From: Dictyostelium discoideum
Taxonomy: Eukaryota
Length of the DNA: 64,000 nucleotides
NCBI GenBank assembly: GCA_000004695.1
Contig: CM000151.3
Location: forward strand, 5,920,001-5,984,000
Reading direction: 5' to 3'
Numbering within the stretch: position 1 is the stretch's first letter; every line of letters begins with the position of its first letter. Below the pieces are notes generated by a model, which was not told the DNA's origin, did not search any database, and was given only the letters and a program-made list of their open reading frames with translations. A program made the translations under genes and the position numbers. Below, piece after piece: positions 39,687 through 45,178 of the stretch.

Positions 39687-40619
39687 ACATGGTATCAATT
39701 AACCAAATTATTAAAGGGTTGGTTAAATTTTTATTTTTTTTGTGGATTGTATGGTGTTAAAAAATGTGAACAATAAATAAATAAATCAATTTTTTTTTTT
39801 TTCTTTTTTTTTTTTTTTTTTGAGTTTTAACTATAAATTAATGGTGAATATGAATTTACATACTTTTGAATAGTTGTTGTACTGGTGATAATGGTGATGA
39901 TGATGGTTGATGAGATTGTTGTGGTTTAAATAAACTAGAAATTTTTTTTTTTAAACCATACATAATTATATGCATATATAAAATAATTCAAAATTTATAA
40001 ATTTAACAAAATTAAAACTATAATTAATTAAACATTTATTGTATATTTAAAAAAAATTAAAAAAAATAAAAGATGAAAAATAAAAATATATTAAGTAAAA
40101 ATGATTATTTATTTATTTAAAAACAGAAATTGATGGTTTAGTTGGTGCAATTGAAGAATTATCAGATACTCAAATTAGAAAGATTTAATTCAACACCATA
40201 CATTAGAAATCAAAAATCAGGTTTAACAATTAACATTTCATCTGATGAAATGGGTTTGGATAATATGTAAAATTATTCAGCATACAGTTCAACTAAACAT
40301 GCAGTCAATGCAATTACATTGGATAAATTATATTTAAAGTTATTTTTAGAATGTATTGATATAGAAAATACAAATTAAATTTAAATATCTCAAATGTTTT
40401 AATCATGATGTGAAAATCTAGGTTTTTTAAGGAGCTATTTATAAAGGATGTATTTTTGTACCTGTTTATAATATTGTTTATGTGATTGGGAAATTTTAAA
40501 AATTTTTTGTCATTCCAAATTTGAGTTTTTTTTTTTTTTAAAAAATTAAATTATTTAAAAAAAAATGTGTGTGGGGTTTGATTGAATATCAATTTTTTTT
40601 TTTTAAAATTCAAACCAAA

Positions 40620-41325
40620 ATGATAGAAAGTGAAGATAAAAATAAATGTGTACTTCATCCAAATAAAAATTTAAAATTTTATGTTTGGATTGTAAATTTA
40701 TGCCATGTTGTAAACTTTGTACGTCTCATAAAGGTGAACATTATGGTCATAAAACTGATTCATTTGAATCATCCAACATCAAATATTCATTCATTAATTA
40801 ATGAATTTAAAGATAATATCTATCCAAAATTAATTGAAAGAAAAGAAAATGATCAAATATTATTAAAAGAATCAAATGAAACTTTCAAAGAAATTCAATC
40901 ACAAAATGATAATAATAATAATAATTTAAAGTTAAATAACTCAATCAATAAAAATAAATTCATTAAAAGTAAGTTATACTCAAATAAATAAGATTAATAA
41001 AAAAAATACTAATTCTTTGTTTTTAGTGTCTGATCACGATTTTTATATATATTCAGAGAATGATGAATCATCTATATTGTCCGGAGATTTTGAAAGTTTA
41101 GCATTCAAAGACAATTGTAACATCTTATCAAAGCTAACTAAATTACTAAACAAAGTTTTGCTTCTAAATGGATTCAATCAAAAATTAAACAAAGGTATAA
41201 TACCAGTGGGTTTTAAAGAGTTGTATATATCTAATATAAAACAAGTATTAATAATCGATTCAATTCCTAATACTGTAACAACTGTTGGCTTATGTGATGG
41301 ATTCAATCAAAAATTAACCGTATAA
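40620..41325 (+). pseudogene. Decayed paralogue of the downstream B-box/FNIP-repeat gene. It has a frameshift in the B-box exon, and most of the FNIP array is deleted.
   Basis: The region 40620-40990 is about 90% identical at the DNA level to 41788-42150, but it has lost one T (aaattttatg vs gaatttttatg), which scrambles the B-box (…[15 protein letters not shown]… instead of …[18 protein letters not shown]…). The shared intron and the FNIP start are retained (41017-41325), and the shared 3' flank is at 41390-41510. Confidence 0.7.
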
Positions 41326-41787
41326 TACGTGAGAACATTAAAGAGTTGTATATATGTGATATAAAACAAGATTTGATGATTGGCTCAATGTCTATATTTA
41401 TAAAAGTTGTAAAAAATTACTTGATTCTTTCGTCCCTGTAGATGTCAAAATAGTAAACATATAAAATAAAAATCCTTGTGGACATATTTTTGAGTAAATT
41501 TTAACATTTTTTTTTATATTATTTTATAATATTTCATTTTATTTTATTTTGTTTTTTTTGTTCCAATATTGATACTAAAGGTAGTAAATAATTAATGTCA
41601 CATAAGAATTCTAAGGATATGAAGTGGTGATATTACAAAAAAGAATTTTTTTTATTTTTATTTTTATTTTTTTTTTTTAAAATTATAAGTTATCAAAATT
41701 ATACAAACTTTTTTTTGGCACCTATTTTTATTTTTATTTCTTTTTTTTTTTTTTTTTTTTTAAACTCAAAACAAAATAGCACACAAA

Positions 41788-43702
41788 ATGAAAGAAAGTG
41801 AAGATATAATTATAAATAATCAAAATAGGTGTACACTTCATCCAAATAAAAATTTAGAATTTTTATGTTTGGATTGTAAATTTATGCCATGTTGCAGTCT
41901 TTGTACGTCTCGTAAAGGTGAACATCATGGTCATAAAACTGATTCATTAGAATCATCAGCATCAAATATTCATTCATTAATTAATGAATTTAAAGATAAT
42001 ATCTATCCAAAATTAATTGAAAGAAAAGAAAATGATCAAATATTATTAAAAGAATCAAATGAAACTTTCAAAGAAATTCAATCACAAAATGATAATAATA
42101 ATAATTTATTGAAAAATGAATTTAAAAAAATTCACAATATACTTTCATTTGTTGAATTGGATATCGAAAAACAACTATCAACAAACTTAAATCAAAATAT
42201 ATTGATAAATACAATTATAACTTCTTCAATCGACAATGATAATAAAATCATTTCAACAATTTTAAATAATAATAATAATTCAATTATTGATAAATTAAAT
42301 TATTTTACACAAATTAATAATCAACAAGATAATGACGACAATGATAATTACTATCAAATTGATACAGATACTATTGAATTAATTAAACAATATCAAAACT
42401 CATTATTAATATTAAATAATAGCAATAATATCAATAATTTAACAAAACTAAAAGAATATAATAATCAAATCTTAAAATTCGATAATCAAACAATTAATAA
42501 TATTAAAAATAGTTTTAAATCGATATACTCTTTTGGTGATATTCCTAATGATGCTATAGATTATAACATTAATAATAATAATAATAATAATAATAATAAT
42601 AATAATAATAATAATAATAATAATAATAATAATAATAATAATAATAATAATAATAATAATAATAATGAGTTAAATAACTCAAATAATAAAAATGAATTCA
42701 TTAAAAGTAAGTTATACTCAAATTAATAAGTCTAATAAAACAAAAAATACTAATTCTTTGTTTTTAGTATGGAATCACGATTTTTATATATATTCAGAGA
42801 GTGATGAATCATCCTTTTTGACTGATGATTTTGAAAGTTTAGCATTCAAAGACAATTGTAACATTTTATCAAAACTAAAGAAATTACCAAACAACGTTTT
42901 GCTTCTAAGTGGATTCAATCAAAAATTAACTAAAGGTATAATACCAGAAGGTGTTAAAGAGTTGTATATAGGAGATATAAAACAAGATTTAATAATTGAT
43001 TCAATTCCTAATACTGTAACAACTGTTAATTTATTATATGGATTCAATCAAAAATTAACCAAAGGCATAATACCAAAAGGTGTTAAAGAGTTACGTTTAT
43101 GTAATATAAAACAAGAATTAATTATTGATTCAATTCCTAATACTGTAACAACTGTTACTTTTTTTGAAGGATTCAATCAAAAATTAACCAAAGGTATAAT
43201 ATCAGAAGGGGTTAAAGTGTTGCGTTTGGGTGATATAAAACAAGAATTAATAATCGATTCAATTCCTAATACTGTAACAATTGTTGCTTTATGTAATGGA
43301 TTCAATCAAAAATTAACCAAAGGTATAATACCAGAAGGTGTTAATGAGTTACGTTTATGTAATATAAAACAAGAATTAATTATTGATTCAATTCCTAATA
43401 CTGTAACAACTGTTGCTTTATGTAATGGATTCAATGAAAAATTAACCAAAGGTATAATACCAGAATGTGTTAATGAGTTACGTTTATATAATATAAAACA
43501 AGAATTAATTATTGATTCAATTCCTAATACTGTAACAACTGTTAGGTTATGTGGTGGATTCAATCAAAAATTAACCAAAGGTATAATACCAGAAAGTGTT
43601 AAAGAGTTACATATAGGTAATATAAAACAAGAACTAATAATTGATTCAATTCCTAATACTGTAACAACTGTTACTTTTTTGAAGGATTCAATCAAAAATT
43701 AA
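41788..43702 (+). CDS. B-box zinc-finger + FNIP-repeat protein. It has 2 exons, 41788..42706 and 42768..43702. The 3' end appears disrupted, with further in-family repeats and the conserved C-terminus out of frame up to about 43990.
   Basis: Exon 1 carries a B-box, [36 protein letters not shown], plus N-rich spacers, and its donor is AAAA|GTAAGT. The intron is 61 nt and the acceptor is TTTTTAG|TA. Exon 2 carries about 8 FNIP repeats ([39 protein letters not shown]). At about 43676 the T-run has 6 T where the other repeats have 7, which shifts the frame (stop at 43702). One more repeat then ends in ACT TAA TGT where the paralogous repeats read TTA TGT. The conserved tail ...SIPNTLNNVYIYKSCKKLIDSFVPVKVKIVNI* at 43807-43990 is shared with copy 1. 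Confidence 0.65.
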
Positions 43703-45178
43703 CCAAAGGTATAATACCAGAAAGTGTTAAAGAGTTACATATAGGTAATATAAAACAAGAATTAATAATTGATTCAATTCCTAATACTGTAACAACTATT
43801 ACTTAATGTGATGGATTCAATCAAAAATTAACCAAAGGTATAATACCAGAATGGGTTAAAGAGTTACATATAGGTGATATAAAACAAGAATTAATTATTG
43901 ATTCAATTCCTAATACATTAAATAATGTCTATATTTATAAAAGTTGTAAAAAATTAATTGATTCTTTCGTCCCTGTAAAAGTCAAAATAGTAAACATTTA
44001 AAATAAAAATCCTTGTGATGACATTTTTGACTAAATTTTAACACCTCCATAATTATTTTATTCTATTTTATAATATTTTATTTTATTTTATTTTATTTTT
44101 TTGTTCTAATATTGATATTAGAGGTAGTAAATGACTATTTTAATTTTATACAGCCGCCATCACTCAGTGTAAATTTGAGATTTTACTGCTGATTTGTAAT
44201 TCCATCTTCCCACCATTTTTTTTTCGCCAAGTAAGTAAATTTTCATTATTTGATTGTAAACTAATTATTAACTACCAAATAAAATTCGTTAAACAAAAAA
44301 AAGATTTTTTTTTTTTTTTTTTTTTTATTTTTTTTATTTTTTGGGGATATTCGTAAAAGACCAACTAATTCCAATATGGCTTCATCTATTGCAAATTTTC
44401 ATTTATTAAACTCTTTTATGAATATAAAAAATCAATTAAAAATTAATTAAAAATTTTTTTTTTAATATATTTTAAAATTATTTACTAATTTTTAATAAAT
44501 ATTAATTTCTAATAAATATTAATTAATTCTTTTTTATTAAAATTTTATTATCAGGATTATTTTTTTTAAATATTAAAATTATAAATAAATGATTATTAAA
44601 TGATTATTAAATTATTAGTATTTACTAAATAAAATTATGTTTTGAATTTTTTTTTTCAGTATAATAATGCTTCTGCTCAATATTTACCTTCATAAAAAAT
44701 TTGGTTTTAGAATTTGGAAAATGGTTTCTTCAAATGAAATATTCTATAATATTGATATTTACCAAGTATTATTAAATGATGAAAATAAATAATAAAAATA
44801 AAATGAGGAAAATCTTCAAAATTATTAGAAAAAATAATAAAACTAAAATTAAATAAATAAAATCAAAAATAAAAATATATTAAGTAAAAATGTTTATTTA
44901 TTTATTTAAAAAAATGTTAAAAAAAATATTAAATCAAATATTCAATATTAAAAAATTAAAAAAAGTATTGAAATGATAATTATCAACCTACATTTTTAAG
45001 TTGTCTAAAAAATTTTTTCCAAAATTGGAATTTTTTTTTTTTTGACCTAATTTTTTAATTGGGAAATGGAGATTTTTTTTTTTTTTATGATTTTGTGGAA
45101 CTATTAAACATTCACTTTTTTTTTTTTTTTTTGATTTTGTAGGTATTTTAATTTAGAAATTTTATTTTTTTTTTTATT

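Follow-up and report, generated by a model that had tools for sequence, protein, structure and literature searches.

FNIP repeats are a class of leucine-rich repeats (LRRs) present in dictyostelids, giant viruses and other taxa, and 557 Dictyostelium FNIP sequences have been described (PMC9525666). In D. giganteum, FNIP is the most abundant Pfam domain, occurring in 419 proteins (bioRxiv 10.64898/2026.03.01.708701). One protein that combines a B-box with FNIP repeats, AreA, has been studied; it binds Atg101 and dampens autophagic flux (PMC4554924). Here, we describe a locus on chromosome 2 of Dictyostelium discoideum AX4 at which two members of this family, copy 1 (40620–41325) and copy 2 (41788–44001), lie next to each other on the forward (+) strand. 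All positions refer to the window, that is, the whole stretch of 64,000 nucleotides (nt) that was analysed (GCA_000004695.1, contig CM000151.3, positions 5,920,001 to 5,984,000; G+C content 22.5%). Our results indicate that much of the locus is probably a young copy of, or exchange with, a block on chromosome 5 that occurred at the DNA level, with copy 2 most likely being an early pseudogene and copy 1 an older, chimeric relic.

How does this locus compare with the described systems? AreA (DDB_G0279871) and two further proteins, DDB_G0289849 and DDB_G0289641, resemble copy 2 in having an N-terminal B-box, a long helical region and a C-terminal FNIP array with a conserved tail, and they are 53–56% identical to it. 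Unlike them, copy 2 belongs to a subgroup with repeat units of the type '...KLTKGIIPE...', shared with three chromosome-5 genes that we call X, Y and Z; furthermore, copy 2 is truncated and copy 1 is without a B-box. AreA contains DUF4559, whereas copy 2 has no Pfam match to DUF4559. The giant-virus FNIP/FGxxFN proteins (CroV588, structure 6nyr; structure 7zal) share with the family the 21–22-residue repeats, the FN and IP motifs and a match of the solenoid. However, the units at this locus differ from the FGxxFN subclass (PMC9525666) in that they read x-G-F-N-Q / ...GFNQKL...IP, with no Phe-Gly four residues upstream and no double-Phe spine, and they differ from the giant-virus arrays in that two repeat types alternate in a 43-residue super-repeat that is fused to a B-box. 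An initial annotation, made from the letters of the window, had called the repeats a Dictyostelium-specific family, which does not agree with their occurrence in giant viruses and other taxa.

As a case of gene decay, the locus resembles duplicated (non-processed) pseudogenes, in which the intron, promoter and flanks are copied, an intact paralogue exists, the derived lesions are few and the site is empty in relatives. It departs from the standard duplicated pseudogene in that copy 1 is annotated as protein-coding with an open frame of 215 amino acids (aa) and that the inactivity of copy 2 is deduced rather than observed. For a family that numbers hundreds of members, such a segmental duplication with pseudogenisation is ordinary, and it does not change what is known of the FNIP family. 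Its value lies chiefly in annotation (DDB_G0275727, DDB_G0290101 and a 663-aa gene model in the assembly GCA_054883475.1), and it offers a dated, clean example of how the family spreads between chromosomes and how its members die.

Match to a Block on Chromosome 5

A full-length protein search was dominated by poly-Asn words and missed the closest relatives of copy 2, whereas an N-terminal query alone gave four matches. The sole database protein with the '...KLTKGIIPE...' type of unit was DDB_G0290101, which is encoded on chromosome 5. We refer to the counterpart of this locus in the second D. discoideum assembly, GCA_054883475.1, as L006. It contains, between the ELP3 and Fe-ADH genes, a cluster of three genes, namely X (9273–12202 of L006), Y (12544–14839) and Z (starting at ~19592). 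Gene X corresponds to DDB_G0290101 (Q54GK0) of AX4 and is split by ~1.2 kb of retroelement-like sequence (L006 10325–11504); Q54GK0, in which FNIP repeats are fused to a retroelement fragment, probably reflects the annotation of a dead gene rather than a real protein. Gene Y has an open frame of 744 aa, with the same 61-nt intron as copy 2, a B-box scoring 27.9 bits and nine FNIP units.

The window and L006 (~12056–15175) are collinear over 41299–44335 (+), a block that comprises the last unit and tail of copy 1, the spacer, copy 2 and 334 nt of 3' flank. Two long alignments cover it, with 90.6% identity over 2.8 kb between L006 11924–14645 and 41167–43938 and 93.4% between L006 13747–15176 and 42910–44335. 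In global alignment, the unique parts of the block were 97.1–100% identical to L006: 98.8% in the tail and flank of copy 1 (41345–41506), 97.1% in the spacer, 98.7% in the upstream region and exon 1 of copy 2 (41745–42569), 98.6% in the intron region, 98.4% in the last unit and tail and 98.3% in the 3' flank up to 44300. The FNIP array was 93% identical, and copy 2 had one 129-bp unit fewer. Immediately left of the block (41170–41298), the identity was 82.9%. The left edge at 41299 is sharp, and on the right the similarity is gone after 44335.

The order of broken tail, spacer and intact gene that is seen in the window is also present on chromosome 5. Because the same arrangement, together with the same tail deletion, is found there, the tail defect of copy 1 is shared with gene X and was not acquired on chromosome 2. 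Apart from the lesions described below, copy 2 and gene Y differ in frame by the 129-bp unit (eight units versus nine) and by the (AAT)n tract, which is 48 nt longer in copy 2.

Copy 2

Copy 2 is a B-box/coiled-coil/FNIP-LRR gene. Exon 1 (41788–42706) starts with the ATG at 41788 and encodes a B-box at residues 11–54 (~41818–41949), which matches Pfam PF00643 with 29.9 bits (cut-off 24.1). Eight zinc ligands with cross-brace spacing (C15, H18, C27, C30, C35/36, C39, H46/47 and H49) can be read from the translation. No Pfam match to a RING finger was found in copy 2, whose B-box begins at residue 11, and the proteins are therefore not of the TRIM/RBCC type. The B-box is followed by a predicted helical or coiled region and then by a poly-Asn stretch encoded by (AAT)32 at 42570–42666. 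The intron (42707–42767; 61 nt, GTAAGT...TTTTTAG, phase 1, 82% A+T) is kept in copy 1 and in the chromosome-5 gene. Exon 2, as it currently reads (42768–43702), ends in an aberrant C-terminal peptide that includes TFLKDSIKN and in a stop at 43700–43702, giving a product of 617 aa. This product matches FNIP (PF05725) with 206 bits in six units of 44 positions and consists there of 21–22-residue repeats with the FN and IP motifs. At the DNA level, Tandem Repeats Finder reported the array at 42910–43916, with a period of 129 bp (43 aa, or two 21–22-residue LRR-like repeats), 7.8 copies, 91% matches and a score of 1580.

Two lesions separate copy 2 from a full-length gene, as the initial annotation had noticed. 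The first is a run of six T residues at 43675–43680, which causes a −1 frameshift (GTTAC-TTTTTTGAAGG in the window versus GTTACTTTTTTTCAAGG in L006); the intact paralogue has T7, as has the equivalent junction of an upstream unit of copy 2 itself (~43166–43172). The second is a TAA in the restored frame at 43804–43806 (ACTTAATGTGATGG versus ATTTTATGTGATGG in L006), where the intact paralogue and the sister units read TTA (Leu). Since the intact gene Y has both T7 and TTA, the T6 and the TAA are derived in copy 2. Only these two repairs are needed to open the frame up to 44001, where it ends in ...YIYKSCKKLIDSFVPVKVKIVNI and a stop; the repaired product is 717 aa long and not about 430 aa, as had been estimated.

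Could the lesions be sequencing errors? The corresponding region of GCA_054883475.1 (L001) is 99.7% identical to the window over 28902–47253. The 21 differences consist of 14 length changes in A/T runs or microsatellites and 7 substitutions, and none of them lies within 41788–44001; both the T6 and the TAA are the same in the second assembly. Because this independent assembly is identical over the whole of copy 2, the sequencing-error reading, which the initial annotation had left as an alternative, is refuted.

The annotation of GCA_054883475.1 gives a 663-aa product for L001 12844–15057, which is equivalent to 41788–44001. The sole GT-AG solution that yields this length adds two introns, 43617–43684 and 43745–43837, which skip the frameshift and the stop. 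Their A+T content is 76–77%, near that of exons (74%) and unlike that of the real introns (82–84%); they start with GTAATA and end with AAG, and their homologues in gene Y are FNIP units that lie in the open, translated frame. Judging from these properties, we regard the two introns as implausible and the 663-aa model as a detour of the gene caller around the lesions. Programmed frameshifting at the T run was also considered and rejected, as the TAA 125 nt downstream would terminate translation regardless. Of the AX4 proteins that copy 2 could encode, four were looked up by exact match (the 617-aa and 663-aa products and two plain open reading frames (ORFs)), and none was found.

Because it is truncated, the copy 2 product is without two 43-residue pairs of repeats and without the C-terminal tail. 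The tail, now untranslated (43924–44001; NVYIYKSCKKLIDSFVPVKVKIVNI followed by a stop), is conserved across the wider family. We read the fold from the AlphaFold model of a relative, DDB_G0289849 (56% identical), and not from copy 2 itself. In that model, the repeats form an LRR-like beta-solenoid with one strand per ~21 residues (predicted local distance difference test (pLDDT) scores of 86–95), and the homologous tail forms the last solenoid strands (pLDDT 82–93). A Foldseek search with this solenoid matched CroV588 (6nyr, E = 4e-11) and 7zal (E = 5.5e-6). By analogy with the model, the tail of copy 2 would have capped the repeat solenoid as its terminal strand. LRR arrays without a cap are usually unstable, and the loss of the terminal cap would probably destabilise the copy 2 array.

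Copy 1

Copy 1 is annotated as DDB_G0275727, a 215-aa protein, with exon 1 at 40620–40968, an intron at 40969–41026 and exon 2 at 41027–41325. Its former B-box (40677–40776) is out of frame between a −1 change (T4 at 40677–40680, where copy 2 has T5) and a +1 change at ~40773–40776. As a result, about 33 codons, including those of all the B-box ligands, are off-frame before the frame is regained in alignment with copy 2, and Pfam finds no B-box match in copy 1. The 1-nt deletion that scrambles the B-box had been noticed in the initial annotation, and the compensating insertion had been missed. The description of copy 1 as having lost nearly all of its FNIP repeats also stands: one Pfam unit remains (34 bits), and two units can be recognised in the alignment with copy 2. 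Furthermore, copy 1 has an in-frame loss of 15 nt in the leader relative to copy 2, an in-frame deletion of ~540 nt between (AAT)n tracts (its ends corresponding to ~42105 and ~42643 in copy 2) and a loss of 4 nt at ~41320 that creates the TAA at 41323–41325.

A remnant of the C-terminal tail is present downstream, at 41387–41464 (NVYIYKSCKKLLDSFVPVDVKIVNI and a stop). It had been taken as a tail that copy 1 still keeps; the sequence is there, but it is out of frame through a 19-nt deletion that is shared with gene X of chromosome 5, and DDB_G0290101 terminates in the same out-of-frame peptide, ...DLMIGSMSIFIKVVKNYLILSSL. Similarly, the 3' flank that the two copies have in common is longer than the ~120 bp proposed at first, and the similarity extends over 41299–41590 and 43813–44135, with 90% identity. 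The similarities between the copies (BLAST E ≤ 1e-32) are far beyond chance.

The two halves of copy 1 differ in their affinities. The 5' half is ~95% identical to copy 2 over the aligned bases and 77–80% identical to gene X, and it is ~5% diverged from gene Y as well. Because the 5' half is like copy 2 and the tail is of the X type, copy 1 is chimeric, with its junction at an FNIP-unit boundary (41299). An intron (58–61 nt) and the upstream sequence are retained in both copies; since the intron is kept, neither is a retrocopy or processed pseudogene.

Comparison of AX4 with the second D. discoideum assembly (ACTFIT) showed only two substitutions within 40–45 kb, at 40674, 3 nt upstream of the out-of-frame B-box, and at 40713, inside it. 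At both positions AX4 has A, whereas the second assembly and copy 2 have G, so that the A of AX4 is derived. Single-nucleotide polymorphisms are ~7 times as dense at the B-box region of copy 1 as in the region on average, which fits a sequence free of constraint. The annotated protein DDB_G0275727 (Q553M2), whose zinc finger is read in a shifted frame, is very probably not a real one.

The Insertion Site

The spliced product of copy 1 as it stands (40620–40968 joined to 41027–41325, 215 aa) is identical to DDB_G0275727/Q553M2, which places the window on chromosome 2 of D. discoideum AX4. The neighbouring genes are consistent with this placement, namely a PP2C-like gene (36945–39251), ALIX, Thg1 and iqgD, the last of which is DDB_G0275731 on chromosome 2 (PMC13628810). 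On comparison with related genomes, the copies lie within an insertion of ~4.7 kb (40124–44837), between the PP2C-like gene and the next gene, that is specific to the AX4 lineage.

Orthologues of the PP2C-like gene led us to the syntenic regions of the relatives, and four genomes have an empty site: ACTFIW (L003), D. cf. discoideum ACTFIY (L007), D. citrinum (L004) and D. firmibasis (L005). In D. citrinum and D. firmibasis, which were inspected by direct reading and by a pattern count for the unit signature, the distance from the PP2C gene to the minus-strand gene downstream of it is ~600 nt and ~360 nt, respectively, and is filled by A+T-rich spacer only. The same gap measures 3.1 kb in ACTFIW and 1.85 kb in ACTFIY. 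Neither a tblastn match to copy 2 nor the FNIP unit signature was found at the syntenic site in any of the four. The alignment of L003 to the window stops at 39934 and restarts at 44845. The insert is also present in the second D. discoideum assembly (L001; ACTFIT). By this comparison, it is younger than the split from the empty-site genomes, and this is the case whether it arose by insertion or by conversion.

The surroundings of the insert contain three occurrences of one intergenic segment that is single-copy in ACTFIY, where a single stretch (L007 12441–12819) matches the first occurrence as well as the third. The first (39298–39764) forms the 3' flank of the PP2C-like gene. The second (39942–40124) is partial, and its last ~63 nt (40062–40124) are the left arm of a short direct repeat that brackets the insert. 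The third (44832–45385) marks where synteny with the empty-site genomes resumes, and its positions 44852–44913 are the right arm; the two arms are identical at 72 of 75 aligned bases. The identity is 83% between 39298–39473 and 39942–40110 and 74% between 39404–39679 and 44832–45128. The mosaic of local duplications that the initial annotation had described is thus real, but it is modest and amounts to one intergenic segment present in three partial copies and to a direct repeat of ~63–75 nt.

Parts of the insert lie outside the chromosome-5 block. Upstream of copy 1, at 40130–40380 (+), is a pseudogene fragment of a short-chain dehydrogenase with stops and frameshifts. Its translation (...NISS...YSAYSSTKHAVNAIT, with the active-site region ...YSAYSSTKHAV...) matches Pfam adh_short slightly below the cut-off (E = 1.3e-5, 25.3 bits, profile positions 120–160 of 195), and the parent gene of the fragment was not found. 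The right end of the insert is a stretch of 0.5 kb (44336–44831) for which neither L006 nor any of the empty sites has a match. Within it, an acceptor-like TTTTTTTCAG precedes an ORF of 41 codons (44667–44792), and the stretch may be what is left of another gene. No tRNA gene was found between 36 and 50 kb in the window, and there is therefore no sign of a tRNA-targeted retroelement at the site.

Origin and Fate of the Two Copies

How did the locus arise? In the explanation that we favour and consider probable, 41299–44335 would be a young copy of the chromosome-5 block, or the product of an exchange with it, in which the intron and the promoter were kept and which has since diverged by ~1.3% in unique sequence. 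In the source block, the tail of X (DDB_G0290101) would already have been broken, and the spacer and the intact gene Y (744 aa) would have followed it. After the duplication, copy 2 would have undergone a homopolymer slip from T7 to T6 and a transversion from TTA to TAA, and its coding sequence would have become shorter by a 129-bp unit, without a change of frame, and longer by 16 Asn codons. Copy 1 would be older, with its scrambled B-box and its (AAT)n-bounded deletion, and would have become joined at 41299 to a tail of the X type. These changes may have come about through non-allelic recombination between the FNIP units of 129 bp, deletion mediated by microsatellites and slippage in homopolymers. 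Gene birth and death, the picture drawn in the initial annotation, holds to the extent that both copies are damaged members of a family in turnover; it does not hold as a simple local decay of a tandem pair, as the block is 97–99% identical to chromosome 5.

Several points weigh against this explanation. The match of the block is directly observed, whereas its direction, which would be from chromosome 5 to chromosome 2, is suggested by the empty sites only; a further locus of ACTFIY (L008) was not syntenic with the chromosome-5 cluster and gave no direction of duplication. The donors of 40124–41298 and of 44336–44831 were not found. Protein searches did not find an AX4 protein at least 90% identical to copy 2 or to Y, and Y was seen only in the second assembly. 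That copy 2 is non-functional or dispensable, an early-stage pseudogene, is most likely, judging from its lesions, but exon 1 shows no excess of decay upstream of them. Exon 1 of copy 2 and of gene Y differ at 11 positions, among them 41872, 41949, 41975 and 42127; 9 of the differences are non-synonymous and 2 synonymous, with a ratio of non-synonymous to synonymous changes per site (pN/pS) of 0.91; when the changes are polarised with copy 1, X and Z, most of the non-synonymous ones fall on the Y lineage, and 2 synonymous and 1–3 non-synonymous ones on that of copy 2, although with 11 changes such counts are tiny. In addition, both lesions are confined to the final 15% of the coding sequence, a pattern that is also expected of a truncated protein still under selection.

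Could copy 2 still be a working gene? With the same origin, it would be transcribed from the duplicated promoter, and its 617-aa product would contain a B-box, a coiled coil and six pairs of FNIP repeats, the shortened array being tolerated or even useful. The promoter/spacer and exon 1 are 97–99% identical to those of the intact paralogue, the 1.85 kb of ORF before the frameshift are undamaged and the changes on its lineage in exon 1 include 2 synonymous ones against 1–3 non-synonymous ones. The lesions are confined to the 3' end, and the second, being downstream of the first, would have been neutral once the first arose; moreover, with the stop in the last exon, decay of the mRNA would not be expected. 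However, the counts are again tiny, few lesions are expected anyway at 1.3% divergence, the lost tail is conserved in the family and modelled as the terminal solenoid strand, and the absence of the locus from four close relatives makes it dispensable for the genus. Taken together, we consider a functional copy 2 unlikely, although worth bearing in mind. A copy 2 that is intact, either because its lesions are sequencing errors (717 aa) or because the two introns skip them (663 aa), is scarcely credible. Although the gene caller's 663-aa product spans 41788–44001 and only those two intervals give a GT-AG solution of that length, two independent assemblies are the same at every base of copy 2, and both introns are exon-like in A+T content, carry GTAATA and AAG ends and are homologous to translated units of gene Y.

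The two remaining explanations concern the origin of the block. If an older B-box/FNIP pair had already existed on chromosome 2, 41299–44335 could be an ectopic gene-conversion tract of ~3 kb with chromosome 5. This would account for the jump in identity from 83% to 100% at the FNIP-unit boundary at 41299, for a 5' half of copy 1 that is ~5% diverged from copy 2 and Y compared with 1.3% for the block, for the parts of the insert outside the block that have no counterpart at the chromosome-5 locus and for the shuffling of FNIP units, of which units 2, 4 and 5 of copy 2 are mutually closest. The tract would, however, be long, as it would extend over the spacer, all of a gene and 334 nt of non-coding sequence beyond it, and we hold such a conversion to be rather improbable. 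A tandem duplication at the site, with copy 1 having decayed where it arose and copy 2 now starting to do so, is suggested by the adjacency and common orientation of the copies and by the 5' leader, intron, FNIP units and 3' flank that they have in common. It is nevertheless very improbable, as the tail and spacer of copy 1 are 97–99% identical to gene X and its spacer compared with ~90% to the tail of copy 2, and both the order of broken tail, spacer and intact gene and the frameshifting tail deletion are shared with chromosome 5. A local tandem origin is contradicted to the right of 41299 and could still hold for the 5' half of copy 1, provided that the genome contains no closer relative of that half at another locus.

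The repeat units behave differently from the sequence around them. Unit 6 of copy 2 corresponds to Y7 and unit 8 to Y9 (97% in each case), whereas units 2, 4 and 5 are closer to each other than to any unit of gene Y, whose inner units are ~90–95% alike to those of copy 2. Since the units of copy 2 and Y are not related one-to-one, unequal exchange or conversion within the arrays must have taken place. The divergence of the array between copy 2 and Y is about five times that of the flanking unique sequence (7% versus 1.3%). In exon 1, the changes assigned to the Y lineage are mostly non-synonymous. It is conceivable, although doubtful, that the FNIP arrays of this subgroup form a repertoire of binding surfaces that diversifies rapidly by recombination, as in LRR immune receptors, and that ectopic exchange diversifies the functional chromosome-5 genes, with the chromosome-2 insert as its by-product or its reservoir.

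Other Features of the Region

The assembly of ACTFIW (GCA_054859355.1, L003) is labelled D. discoideum. It is 86–92% identical to AX4 over 25 kb (window 27331–53491), with ~90% at the locus. On these values, ACTFIW looks like a distinct lineage, similar to the 'cf. discoideum' assemblies.

An element of ~130 nt (AAAGTATTTAA.TAATGGGGAA.GCTTCATTATAAAATATT...TGTTCAGAATTGG...AAACTCTG...GGTTTAAAC) occurs once in the window, at 45249–45385, and three times in the intergenic region of ACTFIW (L003 12820–12950, 13005–13128 and 14060–14190). Either a small repeat or a non-coding RNA is conceivable. Further downstream, on the minus strand (46046–46089), is a sub-threshold Rfam match to the Dictyostelium Class I RNA (RF01414), which spans the full length of the model (34.7 bits compared with a gathering score of 41.5; E = 0.0011). 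A scan for sigma-70 promoters and terminators returned background counts only, and its model has no meaning for a eukaryote.

The remaining repeats in the 64-kb window are a direct duplication of ~560 nt (60760–61318 and 61713–62278, 74% identical) and internal repeats inside the coding region of iqgD (23144–23850).

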